From: a virus
Lineage: Duplodnaviria > Caudoviricetes
IMG/VR virus record: IMGVR_UViG_3300029448_000162
Coordinates: 1 to 35,685 of that record
Length of the DNA stretch: 35,685 nt
Reading direction: 5' to 3' (one strand)
Within the stretch, counting starts at the first letter, position 1; every line of letters begins with the position of its first letter. Positions 3,937 to 34,455 of this stretch are shown here, in pieces. Below the pieces are notes generated by a model. It worked only from the letters and a program-made list of their open reading frames with translations, was not told where the DNA came from and ran no database searches. A program made the position numbers and the translations under genes.

Positions 3937-3944
3937 TATTTATT
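3937..3944 (-). promoter_or_regulatory. Late-promoter variant AATAAATA
   Basis: Overlaps the stop codon of the 4298-aa gene and lies 7 nt before ATG 3929, the same spacing as at 1704-1711. Confidence 0.6.
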
Positions 3945-6900
3945 CTGGTGCATTTGTTGGTTCTCCTGCTATGAATTTAGCCTGTGATGTTGTAGACTTT
4001 TGTAGTCCTTTACCATCTGCGGCGGTTGACGATCCTGCTGTGTACCATGTATTACCACGTTTTTGCACAATTTTTATTTGTGTACCACTGGCCGGAGCCG
4101 TTGTTAGTGTTACGTTAGGGGTGCTACCATCTACCGAATAACCTCTAGTTAATGTACTATCGTCCAACTCGTGTTTGAAAGACAATCGTTGGCCACCAAT
4201 GAATATGTCTAAATCTTCACCACGAGTTGGAGCGTAAGTAGTAGCAAAACTGACCGTTGAACCATCACCTGTATAAGTTTTGGTTGCAATTGTGTCAGCA
4301 TAAGGCACAGTTTGGTGTCCACCTGCGTCTACTACAGAAGCGCCTGAGGAGTGTGCCTTAATTCCTGTGCCAAGGGTACCTCTTCTAAGTTGAGATAAAG
4401 TATTACCTACCTTGACAAAATATTCAATTCTTTCTTTGTCAACAAACACAACACCTGGTTGATTATTGCCAGCATTCGGCGTTGTTAACACAGTGCCATC
4501 TGATACAATCATACTTTGATCTCCTGGCTCTAGTGCAACTGAAAGTGTTACAGTATTTGTTGAACTAATTCGTTTGTAAAATGTTCTGTTTAACATATCT
4601 TTAAAAATTCTAAATCCTGTGGCATTTGTTGCGGATTCAACAGCAAAATACATAACATCTATTCTGTCAGAACTTGTCAGCGTTATACCATGTATGGTTA
4701 ATTTGTTTCCATTTAATGTAAAATCTGCACCTTGTGTCAAAGTGTTTGTTGAATTCACAGTAACAAAAACATAATCAGAATTTAAAGGTTCTGCGTTTAA
4801 AAATAATTCGCCATTTGGTCTTCCTTCTAAAACTTCTCTTCTTTGTTTCATACCCAAAGCATTGTTAAATGTTGTTGCTGTGATATTATCTCCAGAACTC
4901 AAAGTAATTCCATCTGCGGCAATTTGTGTTAAATCTAAAATAACTTCATTAGCAATCATCTTATAATGATTATCAACTAATGTAGTAATTGCCACTACAT
5001 CAGATGCTTCAGGAACAGTAATAAAATCAACTTTCTGCCCAGCAATATTAACAGTATAATCTGTGTTTAATAATTGTTTTACACCATTCTTATAAACTTC
5101 AACTTGGGCCGCGGATGTTATAGTTTTTGCAGGGTCAACAGTTGATCCATCTGATAGTGTGCTTAAAACTGCAAAGGTATATGTTGATCCATCTGAACTA
5201 TAATATGTGTTATCTGGTCCTCTTAATAGATTTCCATTTACTTCTAGTAAAGTAAGTCCTGCAAAAGGACCAATTGCTCCCGGAGGATAATCTAGACTAT
5301 ATGTGGTTGTTGCTCCATCAAAATTAATATTTTCAGATCTAATCTCGGCAAAGGCTCGTGTAGATGGATCTTGATTAAATCCTGCTACTTGAATTGCTTG
5401 ACCTGCACCCGGCGCAGTATTAAAAGTAATGGTCACTGCTTTATTTTGTTCGGACGTTGTAAAATCAGTAGACACTTGTCCGTCAACTGTGACATAGAGT
5501 TGAGGCAATGCACTATCTAAAGTGTATGTGTCTCTGGCTCCTGTTGTAAATGATCTAGTGCTTCCGTCACCTGTGAAACTGTTTAATAAAACGTAGTTAT
5601 TGCCAGATACCGCAAAACTTTTTATACTAATAACAGATCCTGATGCTGGGGCATTTGAAAATGTTACAGTTTTTGCCGCTGTGTCCACAGTGTAATTCAC
5701 TGTGCTGTCTGATGCTAAATTATTTTGTCTAACACCATTTACAGTAACCATAACTCCTGCCTGTGTACCAGGTTGTTGTCCAATATCGAAAGTTGTTGTG
5801 TTTGAATCACCTCTATAAGTTTTGTCTACAATAAAAGGCACTCCAGACTCAGGCGAAGTATAAACTTTTATATCCAGCGTATCAAAAATTTGTCCAGGCA
5901 CTGTTTCTTCAGGTGCAAAACTAGTTTCTGGTGTAATAAATGCATCGCCATCTTGAATTATGTCACCAGGTGATATTCCCACTGCTGAACTGAAAAGGCC
6001 TCCTGATATTAAACTATCAAGTGTTCTGTCGTCGGTAGGTGTCAATACTTTATCATCATCAAATAAAATTAATTCTACTTTTACTCCATTTGCTGGTGCA
6101 GTTGAAAGAGTAAATGCAGTTGTTGTGCCATCGCCTCTAAACACATCCGCTGTTTGTCTTACTCCATCATAATAAACTGTATAAACTTCTGTTGCTAGTG
6201 GTGCAGTATCAAAAGTATAAAGCACAGTTGAACCGTCTCCATAAAAAGTTTTTACTTTGCTTGAACCAAAATTATCCCATGGAGTATTATACCATGGAGA
6301 TCTATCCCATCCTTGATCTTCATTGAAGGCCAATCCTGTAACCATTACTCCGCCATAATCAATGCCTTCCATTAATTGCGTTAGATCATTGCCTGCCATC
6401 CCTGCTTCTGGGGTATACATACCTAGTGTTCTACCTGCCGCTGTTAAAAATACTTCGTCTCCTTTTAATTTTTGTAAATCGCCAATATTTTCATCAAATT
6501 TTGTACTTGATGCAAAAGTTTTTGTTGCCCTATATAATTCGTTATTATATCTTATAAGTGCGCCATAAGAATATGCAGTATTTTTTGCCCATTCAAAAAC
6601 AGTTGCATTTTGATCAACTCTATCAAATTTCAAGGTTATGTCTAAATCTCGCACTAAATCGTTGCCGAGATTTGCATATGCTGTCGCTGTGTCTGTTGGA
6701 GTTGATCCATCAGCGGCTCCGCCTGTTAACAATATTTTTGGTGTGGCAGTATATCCAGATCCTGCTGTCAATAAGTTTATTTTAGTTACAGAGCCATCTC
6801 TAACCACAGCAGTAGCAGTGGCATGAGTTACATCTGGTTCTTGATAAAGTTTGAAATCAAAGGTTCTTGTGCTAACTGCTTCATTTGTTGTACTTGCAGG

Positions 6901-9900
6901 CATATAAAAAGTTTTTCCTGCATGTTCATCAAATGTCACAATAAATGCTCTTCCTGATCCACCCTGTTGTTGATCATAGATGTTGGCATTTTGTTCGCTA
7001 GTAAACAAAGGATAGTAGTAACCATAATCACCAGATGTGCTACCAGAATTACTTCTTCCTAGAATTTGGAATGGGCCTGTGTTTTCTACAGCGCCACCTA
7101 TAAACAACACAGTTGGTGCAGAAGAATATCCTGAGCCACCTTTTGTTAAAGTTATTGTTTTGACAGATTTTTTATAAGAATCGTTCCAAATTTTGTAAGG
7201 ATATTCTGTCAATCTTGTGGCATCAGCAACGCCATCTTTATCTAAATTTCTTATAGCACTAATTGATGAATCGTAAAACGCTGGATTATCAAAATCTGTA
7301 AACAATCCGTCTTGTGTTTCAGTTTTATTGTACCCAACTTTATACTCACGCAGTTTTGTATGGAACGGTTTGACTTCTTTTATGTATTCTTCAACATATG
7401 AGTCTGCACCAACTGTGTAGGTTTTTCTTTGTGTTAATTCTCTAAAATTATTTCTGATATTTAAAAATGAAGTTTTAAATAACCAGTCAACATAAGTTTG
7501 TTCTTCTAATACTTTTCTTAAACCTATAAAGAATATGTTATTGTACTCTACTTTTAAATCACCAATAAAGATGTCGTCTCGTAGTGCAGTCAAAACATTT
7601 CTTGTTTCAATAGTTGGTTCTTGATCAAAAAAGTTGTCATCAAACGTGTCATCGCCTGCGTAGCCTGTGTTATCTATAGTGTAATCATACAATGTTTTTT
7701 TAAGTTGAATTGTGCCATTTTCGGTTCCAACATTTGTATAACCTGTAGATGTTTTCATAAACAACTTCCAGCCACCTGTGTCTGCTTTTGTTACTTTTAC
7801 ATGTTTACCAATAGCAAGGTCGAGTGTGTCAAGTTCGTATTCAAATGTTATCTGAGCATCAATCATGGTGTTGCTACTGTGATCCATTGAACTACCTGTT
7901 TCATACCAATCTGCTAATTCATAGTAGGCCGATGTTTTGTAAGTCTGCAGTCTTGTTCTACTCCAAACAGTGCCATCCCATTGATATATGGCCCAGAAAC
8001 CGTTGGAATTTTCTTCATCTGCTTTGACAAGATAATTCACAGTTCCACTTAGATCCCTTGTGTCAATATAGGTCAATTCTGCATAGGTATCAACAGTGCC
8101 ATCATACAGGCCCGAGGCCGCAGTTGGCAAAGGTTCCTGTTTATCGAGATTGGTGTAACTTATTGTGTTTGCCAACTGTTTTTTAAGCATAACACTGTTG
8201 GCATAATCAACAATTTCTTTTAGTGCGTCAAAACGATTCACATACCAACTCTGTCTTGGTCTCAAATCAGTGCCGTACCTACGATTTACTGGCAACTCAA
8301 TGTCTGGTACTTGGTTACCTGAACTGTCAGCACCAATCAAACTGTCCCACCATTTGTTTTCTAGTCTGGTAGTTGGTCTATCATCTGGATCACCTTCACT
8401 GAAAAGTTTCCAAACTTTATGATCTTCTGCGTCTTCAACATTGTCTGAATAGTCTACATTTAAAACAACATTTGAATTAAACAAACTGTCTTTAACATTG
8501 AATGTTAAAATTTTATTTTTGTCAGACACAGTGAAATATTTCAAGCCTGATCCGTAAGGATTGGCAATGATGTTAGAAATGTATGCAGTTGTGTTCTTTC
8601 TAGTTACAACACTTTTGCCAGCATCAGGTAAAAACACACTGTTTTTAACCCAATAATAATAATAATTTACAAAACTGTTTGATGCACTGTCGTATCTTTG
8701 TTTGACTGTGTACACAGTGTTGTCTGCATATTTTGGTTGACCACTTATACTTTGTGAAATACCTTGTGTTGTGTCAGCCAAATTTGACCAATCCGCAGGC
8801 AATTGGGTAGATTCAACCCATTCATATACATCAATTGTTGATCCAGGAAACAAATCGCCCCAGTGTTTATTTTTAAATTCTTGTGTGCCTTGTTCGTACC
8901 AAGTCCACCTTGCAGATGACAGATCCCACCATACTTGTCCGATGTGTTCTTGACCCCATGCTACATTTTCATCTACGGTTACTGCTCCTTGACCAACTGA
9001 ATAAACTGCTGGATCCCATTCTGATTTGAAATTTAATTCTCTGTCTGCTACTCCTAAAATTCTGCCCTTGATTGGATCATAATAATCTAAATAATCTATC
9101 ACTTGATTGTTTGCACTATTGAATATGAACGCTGATTTAATTTTTCTGTTGTCTATCAAAGCGTCTTCTGTTACTAGTTCATTCCAGGCAAATGATCCTA
9201 TAGTGTTAAGTTCAAATTTTGTTACAGTCCCATCATTTGATACGCCGCTAGATGAATCATCTTCAGGTGCTCCAACATACACACCTCTATCACTTATAAA
9301 CATGCCTCTACCAAAATCATCATTGGCACTAACATTTGTTGTCACAAGTTTTTGATCTATTACAAATTGCGTGTCGTACATAGTGGCAGTGTATGCGCCG
9401 CCTGAACCAATGTTTTCATCTGTGATAGTCGTATCTTGAAGATCGAAAGTTGTTGCGCCTGCATCAAATTTCATTTCTCTTGAATTATTTTTTTTCTCAG
9501 CACCAATCGAAAGTCTAGTACCAGATTGATTACATTCAATTGCTGTACCAAAACGCATGTTGGTTTGCAGATCAGGTGCTTCTACAGTCTGTTGTAGCGT
9601 GTATGTGTTAGTTGATCCATCTGCATTGAATAGATAATAGTAGACTGCTCCTGCATCTGCTTGATTTGTCTTGTCATAGCCGGGTGCTGATACAAATAGT
9701 CTTGTGCCATCTTTGCTCATTGCAAGATCATCACCAAATGAAGTGTTTAGTGTTGACCCGTCTGATGTGGCTCCTTGTAAAGTTTGCCTGTGTGTCCAAA
9801 CATATTGGGTGCTGTCATCATTAGTCAAACTTGATCTTGTGAAAATTTCTATTTTGCCTGCAGAGCCTGGAGCAATACTTGACACAGCCAGTATATCGCC

Positions 9901-12900
9901 GTTGTCGTTGACTTTTACTCTGTGTCCAAATCTTTGTCCTCCATCTGCATCAGGAGATTGTATTGAAACTTGCTGTGTCCATGTGTCATAGGTTGATCCG
10001 TCAGCACCAATGTTCCAGTCGTACATATGTACTATACCTGTGTCATTGTCATAACCAGGTGCAGATACAAAAAGCAATTTTGGAGTTGTGCTTCTGCCTG
10101 ATGAGTCACTAGGTTCTGCCACAGCAGTTGACCAACCAAAGTTGGCATTTTCAAGATTACTGGATCCATCATTTGGACCTTTTATTGTTGAAAGTTCTGT
10201 ATAATTGAAAACACTAGGATCCCATATATAAGTTTTGATCAAACCAGCATCAACGAATCTTGTGCTACCGTCTGCCCCAATGGCATTGGTGTAAGGGGCA
10301 CCTGCCACTACAAAATTTTCATCTGAACTGATTGATAAACTTTCTCCAAGCCTAGAAGAAGTATCATCATTGTCAGTCATAGTGAAACTGTTTTGTATTG
10401 TAAATTGTGTACCTGCAGAATGAGTTCTTCTAAAAAAGAAGTGTACTGTACCTTGACCGGTACTTGGTGCTGACACAACCAATGTTCTGCCATCCTGTCT
10501 TCCAACTATTCTGTAGCCAAAATCTTGGTTGTTTGTTGAGTCTGGAGATTGCAAAATTTTTGTGGTATAAGGATCGTCTTTTTCATATATTTTCCAATCA
10601 CCACCAACATTGTTAACAAAAACTCTGTCACCATTTACATTGTTAGTTGAATCTTTGAATTTATAATCGCTATAACTTAAAGCATCATTGACATTGTTCA
10701 TTGACGCTATCCTTACACTGATAAATTTATAAACATCTCCATATGTGTTAAAAGTTGATTCATCTTCTAAAACACTTATTGCACTGCCCAACCTACTGGC
10801 ATTTAAAAAATTAACTAGAACTTGTTTACTAGTAGGCACTTCTTGGACTTCATATACTCCATTAAAGTCAGGAAACTGTGAATTCCTAATTCCAATATAA
10901 TCACCTTTTATAAAATTATGACTTAGGTTAGTCTGTATTAATACTTGAGTGTCATTGTTAAATGATTGAATAGATTTAACAGTGTTGTTTGCTGAAGTCA
11001 CTCTCTGTACGTCCCAATCAGCATTGGCCTTTTTAGCGATCCAAACAAGGTCATTGTTGCTTATGTTATTCATGTCTAGATTTGTTAGTTGTGTAATATC
11101 AAAAGCAGTGTGTTGAACGTCTTGTAATCTTGGCCATCCTGCATGTTTTATCAACACAGGAGTGTCTCGGTCAAAACCTTCCTGAGTGTAATCATATTGT
11201 GCAAAAGTTGTTGATGCTGTGTACTCTAAAGGTTTTGAATACAGTTGTTCTGCTGTGGCTGTGGCTGATCTTGTGTATGCTTGTGTTTGACCACTGTCCA
11301 ACAGTTCAATTGACTGAACATTATTTGTAAATGTGCTGTCTGGCATTTTGATTTGTACAGATTTTAAGCCATCACAATTTCCAAACTCACCAACTCGTAC
11401 TGCCCATTCAGGGTAGGTATCTATTGTTAAACTTTCGTCATTGAACTGTGCTTTTAACAACCTATCAATGGCTGTTTTAGTTCCTTTATCTCTGATAAAA
11501 CCTTGATAGAATTTGTACTGTGAAATGTCATTTACGAAAAGATTTTCCAGATAAGATCTACTTTGGTACCCGATTAAGTGTTGAGCAAGACTTTGCTGTG
11601 ATTCATCAAAGTTATTGGATTCTAAATTGTAAAAATCATTAAATTGACTTATCTTATAATCAAAATTTGGTATTAAGGACGGCTTAGGTTTGCTGTCTTT
11701 TTTCTTCCATTGTGCAAAATCAAAAGTTGAACCACTGTTGTGATTCTTTTTTGCTACAAAAAACTTGGCATCGTATTCTACTGAGTCACCAATTTCGTAG
11801 TTGGTATTTGCTGACCAAAGTGAAACTTTGGCCTCGTCAAAAATAAATCCAGGTGAATAATAATCGCCATTCCAATTGCCTGTTTTCCAGCCAACTAATT
11901 TCAGTCTTTGTTGTCGGAATCCTGTGGCTAATTCTAATATTACATCATTAAAAACGGTGGTGTTGTCAAACAACAATACATGTTCTTTCTGTACAGAATT
12001 CATTGTGGCATTAAATATTCCAACCTCACTGTTTTTGATTTCTATGTTGAAAGTTGTACCAATTCTTTTGGTTGAAATATCTTTTCTAGAAATTATTCTT
12101 CCGCCAGCATCTAGCACAGTGTAGTCACCACGCATGTTGGCCAGTCTGCTGATAATACTGTTATTTGTTGTTAAATTAAAACCATCTGCGCCAGCACTTA
12201 GAGTGATTGCTGATCCAGCGGCCCATCCCTGTGTTGTCCAATATAAAAATTCTTTAGCAGATGTTTCCCAATTTAGTGTTTCTTTAATTTGATTTGAAAA
12301 ATTATCAAAACTAAATCCTTGTGATTCTAAATATTTTCCATATCCCACTAAAAAATCCACAACTTTTTGAACAGAATCAAAAACTGTTCCGTAAGTTACA
12401 GTTTTAACATTTTCAGTCCAGTTGTTGTATATCAAAGCAGAAGCATTGCCAACTGTTATTTTTGTTGCATTGCCATTTCGCATTGGCTCTAAAACTTTAA
12501 AATAAGGCCTTAAAGAGTTGTAACCTATTACTTTATATCCACCTTGAAGTGTTGATCCGTCTGTGGTTGTATTTGTGTTGAGTTCAACTAACACACCTGA
12601 ATAATCAAAACTGTTTACAGGATTTGATGTTCTAAATAATATTTTGTAGTTTTCATCCGGTACAAATTGTGAGCCTGCTGATGATGCAGGACTTGTTGAA
12701 TCTGTTAAAACTTTTAAATTTGCCTTATCACTAAAACCTCCAAGTTTATATGCTAACTGTACATTTAAGTTTTTTAATTTATCGTAGTAGAAAGTTGCAG
12801 GATCTAAATCATTTTTAATAAGATAGTTTACTATCCACGGCTGATAGCCTGCTGTAAGATATCTTGTTACGACACCTGTATCAGAATTTGTCACAGTTTC

Positions 12901-15900
12901 TAAATGATATTTTGCACTAGATAATTTTTGTCTTACTTCTGTGTCAGCATCAATTAAATTATTGGACACATTGGTTGTCAGTCTTGAATTATCAAAAAAT
13001 AGTCCAAAAAATTTGGCAGGTTTGGTTAAAGCCAACATTTTTACTGCTGAAAAAGGATAAGAGGACGATCTTCTCCAGGCAGTTTCTGAAGGTGATTGAT
13101 CTCCAAAACTCCAGACTCTGTTCATGGTTCTCGTGGTGTTTCCTGTCACTAGTCCAATTGCAATTGGAGTTTTTAGGTTGCCTGAATCATCAACTGGTAG
13201 ATAGTTTTTTAAACCGGATCTAATATATCTTGTGTTTGTTGAATTTATAGTTCTGTCATACCCGGCCGCTAGATCATCCCATAACACCGAGTTACCTGCT
13301 GTGTAAGGTGCAGGACCGTAGTTGTCTTCCCACGTGGTTGGTTTTTCTGAGTAACCTAACATTTCCCATGGATGTGTGTGGGGCCTGTCAGTGTCATAAA
13401 ATAATTTAAATATGCCTCTCCAGTATCCCGGCAAAAGATTTCCGTTCACTGCATCACGTGTGAGGTTGTAATTCCATGTAAATGCATCTGAAGCATTGTA
13501 GGTTGTGTTGTTTTGCCAGTCAACTCCGTTCTTACCTGCCCATGCATAAAAATCCAATGAAAATACAGAATCAACTTCTTGAATTGTGTAGTCTGTGGTT
13601 GCAAAACCAGAAGGAATAACATCTGCAGTTTTTAACAGAGAAGAATCGTATGGAGTTTTACAGTTATTGTAAATTCTTTTTTCTAATTCTAACAGCAAGT
13701 CATCTCGATAGTCACCATATGCAATAGTTCTTGATCCGTCATGACCAACTATTACTGTTTTGCTTGTTCTGTATGTGTTGTCTGTAACAGATTCAGGTTT
13801 GAACTTTGGATATAGGCCTAATTTTGTAGGAGTTGGCGGAATAAAACTTCCGGTTGTGTCGCCATAATCTTTTATTTTTATGATATCACCTTCAGCAAGT
13901 GCTGTTTTAATGTTTATGCTATCATCAGTTGTACTAAAAGTATAGTCTGTGTCTACTAAAAGTTGAGTGTCATTCAAATAAACATACACTGCCCTACTGC
14001 TGACAGTGGTCATTGAATGTTGAGAATCAATTGCATAATCCACTTCCGAAGAATCCTGCACAGTATATGTTCTAGTTGATACATTTGCACCAGTACCAAT
14101 CATGTCTTCATAATAAAAAGCAAAACTAGATGTTTTGTCTTTGGTTATTGTTTCTATTAATTGATCAACATAATCTGCCACATTGCCTTCAAAACTTTTT
14201 CCTGTGCTTATAGATAAAAAGTTTTCTTTAAATTTTTGATATTCTAAATTTGCGTAGTCTATTGATTTAATTGCATTGGCATTTTGATCTATTAAATTAA
14301 AAATACCTGCAGGTAGTGGAGCCGAATGTTGTAAAATTGTTCCGCCTTTTGTTCTTACATCAGGTAAATCACGTAAATTTGTCGCACCAGGAATCTTACC
14401 TGTTAAATCTGTATTTTTTTCGTGTATGTCATGCACATGATTTAAAACTTCTCCAAAAGTAAATTCGTCTTCTTGTGCATTCAAAGGATTAATTGATAAA
14501 TTTTCTGGAACTTCATATAGACCAGTGCCATCAACTTTGGTTGCTGACGAATATGTTTGAATTTTTACGAGGTCGCCAACTTTAAGTTCATCAACAAAAC
14601 TAACATATTTGTTAGTTGTGCCATTTTGTAAAGTGTAATCAGTTGTAAGGTCCTGTCTCACATGATTGACATCAACACTAACTTCTAGATCTGAAAGAGA
14701 CGCACTATTTTTATATACGTCTATAGGAAATAAAGTTTTTTCATCTGCTGTAACAACAAAAGTTCTAATAACCCTTTGTTTGCTTTCAGTAGTTCTTTGT
14801 ACCCATGAACTTCTTGAATTGTGTGTTGTTCTACTTGTTGTATAATGCAAGTGTCCTGACGCATATTGTTTGCTTAAAAAATCGTCTCCGCTTTTGTATG
14901 TAAATGTGCCTGATGACAAATCACTTTCAAAAACAATATCACCAACATTGTTTATTGTCTTGTATTTGACTTTAATACCTAAAACGGTATCCGTCACTGC
15001 TGTAGTTGAAGTTTTAAAAGCAAAAACTTTTGCACCTGTAAATGAACTGTTTGGATACACTGTGGTGTTAGCAAAACTGTTATGAGAATTGTCAAACATA
15101 TCAAACAATGGTTGTTGGTTTACTTCTGTTTTTGTTTGTCCAGTTTGCCATGTTTTTGTATCTTCTTCGTAAAAATAAGTTTTACCTTGATTACTTGTGC
15201 CTAGTTCTACAAAAACATTCTCACCGTCTGCTGGGTCTGTGTCTGTTGTTGGTGTCAAAGCAATAACTTTAGCCGCTGTGCTGTCTCCCACATCAACAAA
15301 ATTTACAGTAAAGATTTTATTTTTTACTAAACTGTCTGTGTCTGCTGTAAACAATACTCGCATGCCATTTTGTAAAGATATTCCATCAATAATATAGCCT
15401 GTTTGATTTACAATATTACTAAAAGCATCAGTTGTCACTGTGTCAACTAGTGCCACTGACGTTTTGGCCTGAACTCCGTGATTGTATAAAGCCAGTCCTG
15501 AATCAAATTCAATGATAGGTCTTTTGGCTCTGTCATCTTCTAAAAGATCAGCAGTATAACCATTAGCGGTTGCTGTGGCTTCAATTACAGATTTATGAAA
15601 CCACCTATTATATCTCGACCAAGCATTTTGGTCTAATGAATCTCTTTTAATTGTGATATAATCTTTTGTTTCAGGTCTGTAAAAAGCAATTGCGTAAGGA
15701 CGTGCATCATAGGCAACATCATCATAAGTTTCTGATGTTTCAGTAGAATAACTTTCCGGAGTAATGAGGTCAGATGTGCTTGTGAATGTAATGGCTTCTC
15801 CAACACCTTCCACATAAAATTCTTTGGCTGAGTACGTGGCTGTATCTGTTACATTAGAACCAAACTTAATTTTCATTCCATTTGATAGACCCACTCCTGA

Positions 15901-16836
15901 CGATGTGGTGTAATTTTTTGCACCAAGAATATCTTCAGAGACATTTATATTTGTTGAACTGTCAACTGTTTGCACATTGATAACTCCATGCATGGCAGAA
16001 TGATTTCCGCCTTGATAATAAAGCACATCTGGAGCGTTTGTTGGCACAATAAACTCAACTGTGCCACTGTCTGTGCCTGCATTTGTAACTCCTGATGTAT
16101 ACAAAACAGAAGTAGAACCGTCTACTGCTACTCCTGTCTTGAATGGTTCTGTCATTATGTAAAAAGGATGACCCGCGGCATTAACTATAAATTTGTAAGT
16201 GTTACCTCTGTAAAGTGTTAGCGTTGGATTGTCAACTCCTGACCTAGTGCTGAAATTGTATGCATCTGCCGCGTTGTTTACCACATCTATTTCTGTGACA
16301 GTACCTGTGCCAACGGCACTTATTGTGATGGGATTTGGACCATCTGGTAACCAATAGTACTCTCTGTAATTTACTAGTTTGTCAAAATCTATAGCAGGAT
16401 TCCATGCATAAACTTTTTCCTTGTTTAATCTATCATGATTATCTACTAGTCCACCAAAATATTTTATTTGATTTATGTAATCGTCGTATGTGCCTGTAAA
16501 CTTAACTTGATCTTCGGGATTTACACTAGATGTGTCTCTGTCTGTGTATGTGACAGCAGGTTCTAATTGATAGTTTTTTCTATCTGTGCTTGTGGCAGTA
16601 AGATATTGATCTTTGTTTGTGTTTCTTGTGTAGGCATATTCATGCCCGATAAAACCATCTAGCCTTTCTAAGGCTCCAGGTTGGATCAATTGGTCAACTG
16701 TGCTTGATAAAAATCTTTCGTTGCTGTCTGTTCTATAAAAACTAGGTAGATGTGCTATAGATCTTCGTATAACAACACCATTTTTGTCTTTGTAGGTTAC
16801 ATTATTTGTTTGTGAATTAACTGGTTTATCTGCCAT
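3940..16836 (-). CDS. Giant multidomain baseplate wedge/adhesin protein (4298 aa; gp7-like position)
   Basis: Uninterrupted ORF directly downstream of the gp6-like gene. Contains a cupredoxin-like module, FG-GAP-like beta-propeller repeats, 'GGSGY..APTV' repeats, a 'YIKEVKPFHTKLRE' wedge-like motif and C-terminal 'GDGST..F' beta-sandwich repeats. Confidence 0.7.
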   Translation of the reverse strand: MADKPVNSQTNNVTYKDKNGVVIRRSIAHLPSFYRTDSNERFLSSTVDQLIQPGALERLDGFIGHEYAYTRNTNKDQYLTATSTDRKNYQLEPAVTYTDRDTSSVNPEDQVKFTGTYDDYINQIKYFGGLVDNHDRLNKEKVYAWNPAIDFDKLVNYREYYWLPDGPNPITISAVGTGTVTEIDVVNNAADAYNFSTRSGVDNPTLTLYRGNTYKFIVNAAGHPFYIMTEPFKTGVAVDGSTSVLYTSGVTNAGTDSGTVEFIVPTNAPDVLYYQGGNHSAMHGVINVQTVDSSTNINVSEDILGAKNYTTSSGVGLSNGMKIKFGSNVTDTATYSAKEFYVEGVGEAITFTSTSDLITPESYSTETSETYDDVAYDARPYAIAFYRPETKDYITIKRDSLDQNAWSRYNRWFHKSVIEATATANGYTADLLEDDRAKRPIIEFDSGLALYNHGVQAKTSVALVDTVTTDAFSNIVNQTGYIIDGISLQNGMRVLFTADTDSLVKNKIFTVNFVDVGDSTAAKVIALTPTTDTDPADGENVFVELGTSNQGKTYFYEEDTKTWQTGQTKTEVNQQPLFDMFDNSHNSFANTTVYPNSSFTGAKVFAFKTSTTAVTDTVLGIKVKYKTINNVGDIVFESDLSSGTFTYKSGDDFLSKQYASGHLHYTTSRTTHNSRSSWVQRTTESKQRVIRTFVVTADEKTLFPIDVYKNSASLSDLEVSVDVNHVRQDLTTDYTLQNGTTNKYVSFVDELKVGDLVKIQTYSSATKVDGTGLYEVPENLSINPLNAQEDEFTFGEVLNHVHDIHEKNTDLTGKIPGATNLRDLPDVRTKGGTILQHSAPLPAGIFNLIDQNANAIKSIDYANLEYQKFKENFLSISTGKSFEGNVADYVDQLIETITKDKTSSFAFYYEDMIGTGANVSTRTYTVQDSSEVDYAIDSQHSMTTVSSRAVYVYLNDTQLLVDTDYTFSTTDDSINIKTALAEGDIIKIKDYGDTTGSFIPPTPTKLGLYPKFKPESVTDNTYRTSKTVIVGHDGSRTIAYGDYRDDLLLELEKRIYNNCKTPYDSSLLKTADVIPSGFATTDYTIQEVDSVFSLDFYAWAGKNGVDWQNNTTYNASDAFTWNYNLTRDAVNGNLLPGYWRGIFKLFYDTDRPHTHPWEMLGYSEKPTTWEDNYGPAPYTAGNSVLWDDLAAGYDRTINSTNTRYIRSGLKNYLPVDDSGNLKTPIAIGLVTGNTTRTMNRVWSFGDQSPSETAWRRSSSYPFSAVKMLALTKPAKFFGLFFDNSRLTTNVSNNLIDADTEVRQKLSSAKYHLETVTNSDTGVVTRYLTAGYQPWIVNYLIKNDLDPATFYYDKLKNLNVQLAYKLGGFSDKANLKVLTDSTSPASSAGSQFVPDENYKILFRTSNPVNSFDYSGVLVELNTNTTTDGSTLQGGYKVIGYNSLRPYFKVLEPMRNGNATKITVGNASALIYNNWTENVKTVTYGTVFDSVQKVVDFLVGYGKYLESQGFSFDNFSNQIKETLNWETSAKEFLYWTTQGWAAGSAITLSAGADGFNLTTNNSIISRLANMRGDYTVLDAGGRIISRKDISTKRIGTTFNIEIKNSEVGIFNATMNSVQKEHVLLFDNTTVFNDVILELATGFRQQRLKLVGWKTGNWNGDYYSPGFIFDEAKVSLWSANTNYEIGDSVEYDAKFFVAKKNHNSGSTFDFAQWKKKDSKPKPSLIPNFDYKISQFNDFYNLESNNFDESQQSLAQHLIGYQSRSYLENLFVNDISQYKFYQGFIRDKGTKTAIDRLLKAQFNDESLTIDTYPEWAVRVGEFGNCDGLKSVQIKMPDSTFTNNVQSIELLDSGQTQAYTRSATATAEQLYSKPLEYTASTTFAQYDYTQEGFDRDTPVLIKHAGWPRLQDVQHTAFDITQLTNLDMNNISNNDLVWIAKKANADWDVQRVTSANNTVKSIQSFNNDTQVLIQTNLSHNFIKGDYIGIRNSQFPDFNGVYEVQEVPTSKQVLVNFLNASRLGSAISVLEDESTFNTYGDVYKFISVRIASMNNVNDALSYSDYKFKDSTNNVNGDRVFVNNVGGDWKIYEKDDPYTTKILQSPDSTNNQDFGYRIVGRQDGRTLVVSAPSTGQGTVHFFFRRTHSAGTQFTIQNSFTMTDNDDTSSRLGESLSISSDENFVVAGAPYTNAIGADGSTRFVDAGLIKTYIWDPSVFNYTELSTIKGPNDGSSNLENANFGWSTAVAEPSDSSGRSTTPKLLFVSAPGYDNDTGIVHMYDWNIGADGSTYDTWTQQVSIQSPDADGGQRFGHRVKVNDNGDILAVSSIAPGSAGKIEIFTRSSLTNDDSTQYVWTHRQTLQGATSDGSTLNTSFGDDLAMSKDGTRLFVSAPGYDKTNQADAGAVYYYLFNADGSTNTYTLQQTVEAPDLQTNMRFGTAIECNQSGTRLSIGAEKKNNSREMKFDAGATTFDLQDTTITDENIGSGGAYTATMYDTQFVIDQKLVTTNVSANDDFGRGMFISDRGVYVGAPEDDSSSGVSNDGTVTKFELNTIGSFAWNELVTEDALIDNRKIKSAFIFNSANNQVIDYLDYYDPIKGRILGVADRELNFKSEWDPAVYSVGQGAVTVDENVAWGQEHIGQVWWDLSSARWTWYEQGTQEFKNKHWGDLFPGSTIDVYEWVESTQLPADWSNLADTTQGISQSISGQPKYADNTVYTVKQRYDSASNSFVNYYYYWVKNSVFLPDAGKSVVTRKNTTAYISNIIANPYGSGLKYFTVSDKNKILTFNVKDSLFNSNVVLNVDYSDNVEDAEDHKVWKLFSEGDPDDRPTTRLENKWWDSLIGADSSGNQVPDIELPVNRRYGTDLRPRQSWYVNRFDALKEIVDYANSVMLKKQLANTISYTNLDKQEPLPTAASGLYDGTVDTYAELTYIDTRDLSGTVNYLVKADEENSNGFWAIYQWDGTVWSRTRLQTYKTSAYYELADWYETGSSMDHSSNTMIDAQITFEYELDTLDLAIGKHVKVTKADTGGWKLFMKTSTGYTNVGTENGTIQLKKTLYDYTIDNTGYAGDDTFDDNFFDQEPTIETRNVLTALRDDIFIGDLKVEYNNIFFIGLRKVLEEQTYVDWLFKTSFLNIRNNFRELTQRKTYTVGADSYVEEYIKEVKPFHTKLREYKVGYNKTETQDGLFTDFDNPAFYDSSISAIRNLDKDGVADATRLTEYPYKIWNDSYKKSVKTITLTKGGSGYSSAPTVLFIGGAVENTGPFQILGRSNSGSTSGDYGYYYPLFTSEQNANIYDQQQGGSGRAFIVTFDEHAGKTFYMPASTTNEAVSTRTFDFKLYQEPDVTHATATAVVRDGSVTKINLLTAGSGYTATPKILLTGGAADGSTPTDTATAYANLGNDLVRDLDITLKFDRVDQNATVFEWAKNTAYSYGALIRYNNELYRATKTFASSTKFDENIGDLQKLKGDEVFLTAAGRTLGMYTPEAGMAGNDLTQLMEGIDYGGVMVTGLAFNEDQGWDRSPWYNTPWDNFGSSKVKTFYGDGSTVLYTFDTAPLATEVYTVYYDGVRQTADVFRGDGTTTAFTLSTAPANGVKVELILFDDDKVLTPTDDRTLDSLISGGLFSSAVGISPGDIIQDGDAFITPETSFAPEETVPGQIFDTLDIKVYTSPESGVPFIVDKTYRGDSNTTTFDIGQQPGTQAGVMVTVNGVRQNNLASDSTVNYTVDTAAKTVTFSNAPASGSVISIKSFAVSGNNYVLLNSFTGDGSTRSFTTGARDTYTLDSALPQLYVTVDGQVSTDFTTSEQNKAVTITFNTAPGAGQAIQVAGFNQDPSTRAFAEIRSENINFDGATTTYSLDYPPGAIGPFAGLTLLEVNGNLLRGPDNTYYSSDGSTYTFAVLSTLSDGSTVDPAKTITSAAQVEVYKNGVKQLLNTDYTVNIAGQKVDFITVPEASDVVAITTLVDNHYKMIANEVILDLTQIAADGITLSSGDNITATTFNNALGMKQRREVLEGRPNGELFLNAEPLNSDYVFVTVNSTNTLTQGADFTLNGNKLTIHGITLTSSDRIDVMYFAVESATNATGFRIFKDMLNRTFYKRISSTNTVTLSVALEPGDQSMIVSDGTVLTTPNAGNNQPGVVFVDKERIEYFVKVGNTLSQLRRGTLGTGIKAHSSGASVVDAGGHQTVPYADTIATKTYTGDGSTVSFATTYAPTRGEDLDIFIGGQRLSFKHELDDSTLTRGYSVDGSTPNVTLTTAPASGTQIKIVQKRGNTWYTAGSSTAADGKGLQKSTTSQAKFIAGEPTNAPE
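4050..6250 (-). repeat. Tandem 'GDG(S/T)T..F' beta-sandwich protein repeats
   Basis: TFYGDGSTVLYTF, VFRGDGTTTAFTL, TYRGDSNTTTFDI, SFTGDGSTRSFTT, NFDGATTTYSL, YYSSDGSTYTF and TYTGDGSTVSFAT, many followed by 'F..AP..G..I'. Boundaries approximate. Confidence 0.7.
9210..10550 (-). repeat. FG-GAP-like beta-propeller repeats (about 7 blades)
   Basis: QDFGYRI..VVSAP, RLGESL..VAGAP, NFGWST..FVSAP, RFGHRV..AVSS, SFGDDL..FVSAP, RFGTAI..SIGA, DFGRGM..YVGAP. Boundaries approximate. Confidence 0.75.
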
Positions 16837-31679: not shown

Positions 31680-31868
31680 ATGTCACAAACACATGAATCG
31701 ATAATGACAGCAATTCAAACTTACTCAGAAGAAAATTCTAAGTTTGTGGAAAAAGGTGTAAAGGCATCTGCGACTAGAGCCAGAAAAGCCCTTGCTGAAT
31801 TATCTAAATTAATAAAAGCAAGAAGAAAAGAAATTCAAGAATCTAAAAACGCACAAAAAGCCGCGTAA
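31680..31868 (+). CDS. Small basic Hc1/histone H1-like protein
   Basis: 62 aa with 'ENSKFVEKGVKASATRARKALAELSKLIKARRKEI'. AAGGA Shine-Dalgarno upstream and its own terminator. Confidence 0.75.
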   Translation: MSQTHESIMTAIQTYSEENSKFVEKGVKASATRARKALAELSKLIKARRKEIQESKNAQKAA

Positions 31869-32799: not shown

Positions 32800-33221
32800 T
32801 TGTTAAGTATACCTTTACCGTGTACCCTTACCCTTATATGACCATTGTAATATTGTTCGCTTAACAGCACGCCTTTTGAAAATTGTTCGTGTGCTTCCCA
32901 ATAATTACATTCTGCTTTACTTTTACAATATCTTAAAATAATTCTGTTAAATTTAGATTTGCCAAAACGTTTGATGTCGGCGTGTAAGGCATCACTGCTA
33001 CCATAGTAGTCTTTCCAGTCGCTGTCCACAGCGCCGCGAATTCTTTTGCGTATTTTTTTTCCGTTTTTTTGCGTATGCATCTTATAGCGTAAGGTTTTGA
33101 ATTTGGCTAGTTTCTTTCCAATGTATCTGCGATTGTTCTCAAGGCAGATGATTTCATACACAAAACCCACACAATCTTTTGGTAATTGTTCAACTCTAGT
33201 GTTTTGATACTGCCATGTCAT
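32796..33221 (-). CDS. Stand-alone GIY-YIG family nuclease
   Basis: 'GFVYEI......RRYIGKK', 'WKDYYGSS', 'F.R.IL', conserved Glu in 'NYWEA' and 'YYN'. No separate DNA-binding domain seen. Confidence 0.75.
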   Translation of the reverse strand: MTWQYQNTRVEQLPKDCVGFVYEIICLENNRRYIGKKLAKFKTLRYKMHTQKNGKKIRKRIRGAVDSDWKDYYGSSDALHADIKRFGKSKFNRIILRYCKSKAECNYWEAHEQFSKGVLLSEQYYNGHIRVRVHGKGILNK

Positions 33222-33226
33222 TGTGG

Positions 33227-33234
33227 TATTTAAA
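33227..33234 (-). promoter_or_regulatory. Late-promoter variant TTTAAATA
   Basis: 5 nt before ATG 33221, with no Shine-Dalgarno. Confidence 0.5.
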
Positions 33235-33244
33235 GTCAGAAAAG

Positions 33245-33273
33245 TTGACCATGCAAATAATCTGTGTTATATA
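33245..33273 (+). promoter_or_regulatory. Sigma70-type promoter with extended -10
   Basis: TTGACC (33245-33250), 17-nt spacer ending in TGT, then TATATA (33268-33273). Confidence 0.7.
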
Positions 33274-33279
33274 CAAGTG

Positions 33280-33660
33280 ATAGGCACACCACAAATAGCA
33301 CACAAAATCAACAGGCACACATAGCATCGCAATCAGTGAGCAGGGAAATGCGGCTACACAGCGACAGGTGAATCCCTTGATGTAAATGCAAAAATGAAGA
33401 GGCTCTGGGAAACAGATCCAACCTCAGGTAGGCATGAACGTATCGTACAAGGGTCATGTCTGCTCGCGTTGTAATGAATGAGCAAACGGGTACAGCACAA
33501 CCGCCCGACCAAGGTAGCGATGTACGGTGACTGTGAACTCACCACAGGAGGTTCGGCTAGCAATAGCCGAATTGTGACTGTTCATCTACCACAGGAGACG
33601 CAACTAAAGACGAAACGAGCACAGCGAAGTTTCAGATGTGCGAATGCACATCTTTCCAGA
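33280..33660 (+). ncRNA. Putative large structured non-coding RNA, family not recognised
   Basis: Own promoter, several hairpins with G-U pairs, a GCAA tetraloop, a 24-nt imperfect direct repeat, possible long-range pairings and a terminal hairpin. No credible CDS until 33679. Confidence 0.6.
33527..33597 (+). repeat. 24-nt imperfect direct repeat flanking a GNRA hairpin
   Basis: GTGACTGTGAACTCACCACAGGAG (33527-33550) and GTGACTGTTCATCTACCACAGGAG (33574-33597) are 19/24 identical. Between them is TTCGGCTA-GCAA-TAGCCGAA. Confidence 0.9.
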
Positions 33661-33678
33661 TCCATAACTATTTGTACA

Positions 33679-34455
33679 ATGATTTTAGTATGGGATCACA
33701 GTCATGGCAAACAGGAACAGCAGGACCTTGTGGTGTGTAGACCTTACGCGATCCCCGAAAGTTACGAAGAAGCCGAAATGGTCGACAGCGGATGGTTGGC
33801 ACTGGACAGGCCCATCTACCATGAGGGCAGACTGCAGGAGTGTTTCTACCAGAGCCGTAGCACACGCATACAACTAAAAAATTACCGTGCGCCCAAGACG
33901 GAGGCAACGCACCGCGGTGAAAAAATACAGATGATGGAGATAATACCCGAGGAGCACAACGTGGAGATGACCGGACTGCGACACGTGTACAACCGCTACA
34001 TCAAGCGCACCAGGTTCAGAGATATCTATGATCCGTTTGTGTCCATACAGCCACGCGACAGTTTCCTGATCTATTACGTGGGCGACGTCACCAACATACT
34101 GGGTTTCAGCAAGATCAAGAGGTACTGGTTCCAGGAAGAACTGCTGAACTACAACAACCGCAGGGAGATACGCAGGATCAGACCGGACCAGTGTTATGCA
34201 ATGGAGAGCGTCCTACACGCCAACACTGTGCCGATCAGCAGGATCACTGTGGACATGGAGGCATCATGGGCCAAGAAAAAAGGCATGAGCGAACTTTACC
34301 TCGGAAGCGGCTATGAGAGGTCCAGCATCTACAAGAGCAAGTTCAGAGGATTTCAATGGTGGACAGGCACCATGTGGAGCAGTGACAAGAAGAAGTACAC
34401 AAGACTGTGTGAGCGTGACAGCAGTGTCAAGAAGATTTCCGATCTCGCCACTTGA
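33679..34455 (+). CDS. Aminoacyl-tRNA-protein transferase, ATE1/Bpt-like
   Basis: N-terminal 'EMVDSGW' and 'STRI.L..Y', and C-terminal 'EASWAKKKGMSELYLGSGYERSSIYKSKFRGFQWW.G..W', resemble ATE_N/ATE_C motifs. Start moved from 33478 to ATG 33679, which follows CATAACTA by 8 nt. Confidence 0.65.
   Translation: MILVWDHSHGKQEQQDLVVCRPYAIPESYEEAEMVDSGWLALDRPIYHEGRLQECFYQSRSTRIQLKNYRAPKTEATHRGEKIQMMEIIPEEHNVEMTGLRHVYNRYIKRTRFRDIYDPFVSIQPRDSFLIYYVGDVTNILGFSKIKRYWFQEELLNYNNRREIRRIRPDQCYAMESVLHANTVPISRITVDMEASWAKKKGMSELYLGSGYERSSIYKSKFRGFQWWTGTMWSSDKKKYTRLCERDSSVKKISDLAT

Follow-up and report, generated by a model that had tools for sequence, protein, structure and literature searches.

A probable non-coding RNA of giant aquatic phages that carries one variable seven-nucleotide word in two matching copies

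The window, by which we mean the whole stretch of DNA analysed here, is a virus record of 35.7 kb with a completeness of about 10%, in which baseplate, late sigma factor, SbcD-like and MazG-like genes are present. Records related to it extend to 300–345 kb, and among cultured phages a comparison of the sigma factor places the PA5oct-like and Atu_ph07-like jumbo phages closest to it (42–47% identity). An ORF of 4,298 amino acids is located among the baseplate/tail genes (positions 3940–16836), and a gene for a 62-amino-acid basic protein resembling histone H1 (Hc1, PF07432) lies at 31680–31868, near the locus described below. No tRNA or tmRNA gene was found in the window.

The locus under study is a 457-nt gap, flanked on one side by a gene for a SegE-type GIY-YIG protein and on the other by a gene for an ATE/Bpt-like protein (Table 1), the latter protein giving no Pfam or PHROG match. 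The ATE-like gene is the next downstream gene in 28 of 110 RNAs of the family described below, the other neighbours being variable, and is contained in 12 of 26 large records; it is therefore no constant partner of the RNA. The GIY-YIG gene is directly upstream in 80/84 RNAs of the largest lineage, and at most 1.2 kb away in 100/127 RNAs of the first set, which was partly fetched through that gene. It was not found in G004, a 90%-complete record that has the RNA.

An earlier note on this DNA had reported two 24-nt repeats in the gap, and these are real: their coordinates (33527–33550 and 33574–33597) and letters were correct, and the copies are 79% identical. They are likely the 3' tail of a free-standing non-coding RNA of about 375 nt (about 33279–33653), which we infer to be a transcript of its own. 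A promoter-like site read from the sequence would place the start of this RNA near 33279–33281; a similar −35/−10 arrangement is observed upstream of the RNA in many close homologs, and a strict promoter scan did not flag the site at 33245–33273. Metatranscriptome contigs cover the RNA region in 6/6 RNA runs (five samples), these runs having been chosen via this very stretch, and in one run a single contig spans 33432–33649 at 100% identity, ending at 33649. Such contigs cannot prove transcription, of which they are a weak hint.

Table 1. Features of the RNA locus and its two flanking genes in the window
Feature	Position	Strand	Basis or remark
SegE-type GIY-YIG protein gene, 141 aa	32796..33221	-	PF19835, E 3.8e-31
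Sigma70-type promoter-like site: TTGACC, 17 nt, TG-extended TATATA	33245..33273	+	Read from sequence
Whole putative non-coding RNA, ~375 nt; 5' domain different from that of Polynucleobacter-1	33279..33653	+	Ends inferred
A/C-rich leader with two AGGCA repeats	33281..33320	+	RGGCA one to three times in 7/7 homologs checked
5' domain: inner helix 33342-46/33373-77, internal loop with AGGTGAA	33324..33383	+	Covarying pairs
Likely outer helix GCATC/GATGT of 5' domain		+	Consensus fold
AAAAATGA linker, helix 33398-401/33423-26, long stem 33428-37/33454-63	33391..33463	+	
Near-invariant core CGTT...GGGTACAG..AACCGCC	33464..33526	+	Holds pseudoknot B and 3' strand of pseudoknot A
Module 1: GTGAC...CTC, word ACCACAG (33541-33547), G	33527..33550	+	
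Central hairpin between modules, 9 pairs	33551..33572	+	100% paired, 3 double-sided changes
Module 2: GTGAC...TCT, word ACCACAG (33588-33594)	33574..33597	+	
3' hairpin, likely RNA end	33634..33653	+	Fold; stem kept in homologs with changed letters
ATE/Bpt-like protein gene, 258 aa	33679..34455	+	Atlas look-alikes: ATE_C in 16-100% of members

The fold of this RNA is defined by covariation. In 35 close homologs a structure of 47 pairs, picked by covariation from the same 35 sequences on which it was scored, has 97.9% of its cells paired and changes on both sides in 31/47 pairs; the fold of the single sequence was no better than those of shuffles (z −1.26). Covarying pairs in the 5' domain are 33343/33376, 33344/33375, 33352/33365 and 33350/33369, and a GTGAG motif sits just 5' of the inner helix. 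The AGGCA repeats of the leader are possible protein-binding sites. The loop of the long stem, 33444–48, is the 5' strand of pseudoknot A (33444–48/33522–26), in which 5/5 pairs change on both sides and 99.4% of cells are paired. Pseudoknot B (33468–71/33498–501) is 100% paired, with 2/4 pairs changing on both sides, and its pair 33471/33498 covaries throughout the family. We also noticed, in L154 and in most close homologs, an AGTC segment between the first word and the central hairpin that can pair with the GACT of either module, an alternative pairing that might act as a switch between two states; this segment is lacking in the sub-lineage of the window.

Searches via the neighbouring proteins and with core patterns gave 368 loci with profile matches, duplicates included, and a variant pattern added 120 loci, 112 of which score at least 30 bits. 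The family is present in hundreds of uncultured giant-phage sequences, every member coming from viral or metagenome contigs. Among 120 pattern matches from 24 of the 64 parts of the genome collection no bacterial member was found, RF01718 was detected in 0/151 genomes of one bacterial family (a search in which no control gave a match either), and blastn against cultured phages gave no significant match to the RNA. Pattern scans of IMG/VR returned on the order of 1,500 stretches, chance matches included, and a covariance model of only five pairs (R1) added nothing. In two unrelated phages, L001 and L004, the arrangement CTGATGA...GAAAC upstream of the pattern match is reminiscent of a hammerhead ribozyme. 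Genes that these jumbo phages have in common, seen in G182 (L750–L767), code for numerous radical-SAM proteins, for FolE, for a QueD-like protein and for a carbamoyltransferase, among others, a set that suggests modified DNA.

In the cultured phage PA5oct, a gap of about 1 kb (NC_071039.1, about 75800–76900; L845:17000–18100) contains only tiny ORFs. It is syntenic, lying after sbcC and a resolvase gene and behind a near-consensus sigma70 promoter, and it has one motif similar to the linker and stem of the RNA family as well as a hairpin followed by TATGACT. The gap gave no significant match to the family profile or to Rfam, and the four ncRNAs given in the accessible part of PMC7318152 do not include it; possibly it holds a distant homolog in a culturable phage.

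As judged from sequence and part order, the window RNA is the long form of an orphan motif, Polynucleobacter-1, with a different 5' domain and an additional 3' domain. In the available part of its description (RF01718; Weinberg et al. 2010, PMC2864571), Polynucleobacter-1 has the same succession of parts, namely an AAAAAGA linker, a stem, a stem with a pseudoknot loop, GCCGUU and GGUAC..AACCGCC, and the alignment of 2010 has the same pseudoknot strand behind AACCGCC. In the window, the A-rich linker followed by a stem is found at 33391–33426, the long-form core GCCGUU ... GGUAC..AACCGCC, compared by eye, at 33464–33507, and the pseudoknot from the stem loop before GCCGUU to the strand after AACCGCC is pseudoknot A, all five pairs of which covary. 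That alignment, of 16 sequences, ends before the twin-word domain, and the accessible text states no function for the motif (PMC2864571). RF01718 scored above its cut-off in 4/20 distant loci (L115, L096, L197 and L153; 48–91 bits), in their 5' domain, and in 2/5 large records; the 5' domain of the window gave no match to it (141-nt 5' domain model). Rfam found nothing at gathering level in the window and nothing at E up to 10 in 33100–33800.

The window RNA also has a GGGUACAG..AACCGCC stem-loop in common with cow-rumen-2 RNA (RF02947), with which about 22–85 nt align weakly and downstream of which no twin words were seen. At two cow-rumen-2 loci (L149:1140–1246 and L259 near 6000), about 300 nt upstream are conserved between both and a long inverted repeat follows; cow-rumen-2 RNA may thus also be part of a larger RNA. 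ROOL, GOLLD and OLE are likewise large pseudoknotted RNAs of unknown function, and ROOL occurs in phages and prophages according to the part of its literature available. Their Rfam models gave no match at E up to 5–10, and the accessible part of the ROOL alignment did not bear out a suspected likeness between its RNA and the core. In the open-access literature, no paper on the twin-word 3' domain was found.

The 3' domain has the layout GTGAC..CTC-word-G, hairpin, GTGAC..TCT-word, and both modules share the variable word, ACCACAG in the window. In the largest lineage the two words are identical in 129/131 RNAs, a count for which only the flanking CTC and TCT set the register; of the two exceptions, one resembles a misparse. 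Family-wide, identical words are present in 230/257 distinct 3' domains, a set that is biased, being registered in part by identity, and 33 different matched words occur. In the 99 context types of the first set, with a register chosen by identity, the copies agree at word positions 1–7 in 89, 97, 99, 99, 99, 89 and 87 types, the expected fraction being 0.27–0.49 at six positions and 0.84 at position 6. In a swap control, the longest shared word was 6.8 within an RNA and 3.5 between RNAs. All four bases are seen at word positions 1–5, which suits a base-pairing code, and the modules are spaced by 47–66 nt in 256/257 of the 3' domains.

The two words also change jointly. On a tree of the core, taken after dropping one apparent misparse, the minimum numbers of changes at word positions 1, 2, 5 and 7 are 19, 5, 9 and 20, and the corresponding joint counts 20, 5, 9 and 20, i.e., about 53 joint changes, with one mismatched tip in 130. 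At each of these four positions, the strongest covariation partner is the same position in the other copy (0.35–0.92; background sd 0.05). The tree counts are probably inflated by exchange of whole 3' domains between phages. Cores that are 98% alike may differ in both words, yet also differ just behind word 1. Flanking positions −5, −4, 9 and 10 match partly between copies (57–81%) and change partly in concert, and the words are only modestly unpaired in local folding (0.5–0.7 at positions 1–6).

The earlier note had read the repeats otherwise, as CTGT/ACAG hairpins that differ only in their loops, each loop pairing with the 5' region of the RNA in a long-range pseudoknot. For this genome, the copies do differ in that way, and loop 1, CTCAC (33538–42), is complementary to GTGAG (33336–40), as loop 2, TTCATCT (33581–87), is to AGGTGAA (33366–72) with one G-U. 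Across phages this description breaks down, since the hairpin is intact in only 8/51 (copy 1) and 3/51 (copy 2) close homologs, the six-nucleotide "loops" are constant and the supposedly constant ACCACAG varies. A covariation check on the 35-sequence alignment gave no support to the two pseudoknots. In the second, 0/7 pairs changed on both sides and the last pair forms in 3/34 rows; in the first, 1/5 pairs did, and the double change seems to come from misaligned columns in the lineage without GTGAG. Overall the proposed pseudoknots have 76.8% of cells paired and a covariation score of 0.049, against 0.555 for the covariation-derived structure. They surpassed all 500 column shuffles in percent paired and in score, a control that ignores relatedness, because both segments are conserved. 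It is by conservation that the first is fully complementary in 30/51 close homologs, and GTGAG is missing in 17/51. Nor do the loops track the 5' segments, as AGGTGAA becomes CGGCGAA while the 3' side stays CTCATC; 33369, the centre of AGGTGAA, covaries locally with 33350 (G-U in 34/51, A-C in 17/51). The caveat that the matches could be chance was well placed, both arising in 27/500 shuffles of the 5' 153 nt and at least one of them in 196/500. With covariation contradicting it, we give almost no credence to loop-to-5' pairing, in spite of the complementarity in this genome. The idea of a scaffold with variable guide-like parts holds in outline, the variable part being the 7-mer that had been called constant and being the same in both modules. 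IS110 bridge RNAs have two different guide loops and a recombinase gene; here the words are identical, so that the suggested likeness to bridge RNAs does not fit, and the two flanking genes are not recombinases.

Within the RNA, no Watson-Crick partner of the word was found, either over the 300 nt that precede the core or along the 3' flank, and the complement of the words in their own RNA was no better than for other words (5.07 vs 4.93). The word shows no self-avoidance (182 observed vs 175 expected), 10 records contain no repeated longer copies of it, and 9/10 records showed no enrichment of it near ORF starts, the exception being the A-rich GGAAAAA of G004 (11 vs 3.4). In codon usage, the amino-acid share is unlinked to the triplet of the word, and the synonymous share of that triplet is slightly low (z −0.48, se 0.18). 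These findings call either for an outside partner, common to both words and reading every one of the seven bases, or for a process in which identity as such is required.

A decoy of the sigma −10 element would suit words such as GATAAT/CATAAT; it fails for ACCACAG or TGTCAAG, and is opposed by the same 9/10 records without start enrichment. Amber recoding in the CTA lineage was rejected, as TAG does end ORFs there. A 325-aa ORF (33478–34455) runs through the two repeats; we read it as an upstream extension of the gene starting at 33679, since the spacings of the modules are spread over all three frames (72/102/83 of 257), which also opposes a coding concatemer. Ribosome hopping is known from T4 gene 60. 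As an explanation here it was discarded, the words of the largest lineage both containing a stop codon and those of other lineages none.

Our preferred reading, which we hold tentatively, is that the twin words form a two-armed gripper pairing with two copies of one outside RNA, the anticodon loops of tRNAs being the leading candidate. Each word, presumably exposed in a loop, would base-pair with one copy of the same RNA, a tRNA anticodon loop would be read via the codon-like middle triplet of the word, and with a new target (a new host or a new tRNA) the two words would have to change jointly. A T-box carries a single specifier together with an antiterminator. The window RNA is similar to the T-box riboswitch (RF00230) in having a codon-like loop triplet that would pair with a tRNA anticodon, and differs from it in its two matched 7-nt words, in giving no RF00230 match and in having no constant downstream gene. 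When 46 words were compared with the anticodon loops (positions 31–37) of 187 tRNAs, they were slightly more complementary than column shuffles, of which 1/200 scored as high with G-U pairs and 11/200 without; this excess amounts to 0.15 of 7 pairs, was one of three tests and concerns words that are related. In G001, the word and the loop of the phage's own tRNA-Gln(CUG) form six Watson-Crick pairs, the best among 39 tRNAs. These tests speak slightly for tRNA pairing. Against it, the own-phage cognate tRNA fits the position-31 prediction in 3/6 phages, 48/53 joint changes fall outside the triplet, and at position 5 the invariant U33 would accept A as well as G, the two bases that flip there, so that matching of the copies at this position is left unexplained. 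C stands at position 5 in the lineage of the window and cannot pair with U33, one lineage has the stop codon TAG in the triplet register, and the concerted change at −5, −4, 9 and 10 is not explained by pairing to a loop.

Identity combined with free sequence is most simply accounted for by an A-B-A' template of the telomerase and DRT10 type, on which repeats are synthesized, and we nevertheless regard this as unlikely, no enzyme having been found. A polymerase would begin copying at word 2, pass the hairpin and reach word 1; the new strand would then re-anneal on word 2, which would yield tandem hairpin units of 47–66 nt (33541–33587 in the window). The accessible part of the DRT10 study describes direct repeats of free sequence and strict identity downstream of a stable structure (10.1101/2025.10.16.682844). 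The same arrangement is found in the window RNA, the word domain lying just downstream of a pseudoknot, and a template needs identity of the copies and no particular sequence, as observed. Identity also stops sharply 5' of the word, with 6–15/99 at positions −2 to 0 family-wide (the 0/131 of the largest lineage being fixed by selection of the set), and 53 of the 109 scanned shared phage proteins have no Pfam family. Unlike DRT10 and telomerase, the RNA is phage-encoded, no reverse transcriptase was found and B is a hairpin region of 40–59 nt, which greatly exceeds in length, and also in structure, the 9-nt repeat of Eco3 DRT10. PF00078 found none in 26 member records and four more (including 99%-, 90%- and 86%-complete ones), phmmer detected none in 2,436 ORFs (best E 0.12), and there was none among the 109 proteins scanned of 123 shared; a very divergent enzyme may still serve. 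The sole PF00078 match was in G024, a cow-rumen-2 record and not a family member, whose 503-aa reverse transcriptase lies about 15 kb away. The contigs of eight runs, read as contigs only, showed no back-jumping joint, which weighs weakly, and the partial identity at −4 and −5 is not predicted by a template.

If the words instead imitated anticodon loops, they would bind a dimeric tRNA-reading protein, such as a defence anticodon nuclease or a synthetase. The thrS operator has two loops, and its synthetase is dimeric. Stem-loops of this E. coli operator mimic the anticodon arm and bind the synthetase, according to the available text of PMC7373986; it is a cis-acting leader with a fixed Thr anticodon, whereas the window RNA would be free-standing and mostly lacks U33. 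Of 46 words, 39 have a purine at position 5 and 41 an A at position 6. Among 22 triplets none starts with A, and several lineages resemble real loops (T-GCC-AA, T-GAC-AT). The equivalent of U33 is U in only 16/46 words, so that a Y32-U33-NNN-R37 loop is not seen, and as look-alikes the words score no higher than column shuffles (192/200). To our knowledge CTA and GCG are not normal bacterial anticodons, and a host protein would need dozens of specificity changes. A Seg-type GIY-YIG gene does adjoin the RNA, and T6 SegB amplifies a tRNA gene against tRNA-cutting defence, in the accessible part of PMC13096335. On balance we consider such mimicry quite improbable, and rate barely lower a parallel docking of the two loops by pairs of identical bases (A-A, G-G, U-U, C-C), either inside a single molecule or between the molecules of an RNA oligomer. 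Docking would need no other molecule and agrees with the same-position covariation at 1, 2, 5 and 7; the available part of the OLE work describes a symmetric bridge of four A-A pairs (10.1101/2024.12.08.627333). C-rich words would, on the other hand, need protonated C-C pairs. We know of no parallel RNA homo-helix of seven pairs and free sequence at neutral pH. Very improbable, in our view, is that the words match only by recombination or slippage copying one module onto the other, even though the modules are alike over 24 nt, identity fades outward and a RecA-like protein is encoded by these phages. About 19 joint flips are counted at position 1, whose three 5' neighbours differ between copies, and a conversion tract reaching position 1 should erase that difference; mismatched tips, moreover, are only 1/130. 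Slightly less credible still is a scaffold and twin guide directing the adjacent minimal GIY-YIG nuclease to DNA. The closeness of the gene favours it, and so does the finding that residues of the protein do not track the word (MI 0.23–0.27; control mean 0.40). It is opposed by G004, by 15/39 full-flank GIY-YIG loci without detectable RNA, by the occurrence of the protein family in 447 cultured-phage records, a collection in which the RNA has no significant match, and by the lack of depletion of own words in 10 records, although the FolE and QueD-like genes suggest modified DNA.

Pairing with an outside RNA, the preferred reading, belongs to a wider picture that is possible and which we hold a little less firmly: a widespread jumbo-phage RNA with a ribozyme-like core and a reprogrammable twin 7-nt address, either a bivalent tRNA-capturer or an A-B-A' template for a polymerase of no known family, would be a new kind of RNA device in phages. 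An orphan motif described in 2010 from 16 sequences is seen here as part of a longer RNA in aquatic phages of about 300–350 kb, and its 3' domain shows a rare constraint, two words that are free to change and bound to stay identical. The function is directly testable, since changes of one word and of both words separate the models. If the picture is true, these phages would possess a new programmable RNA or a new way of handling host tRNA.
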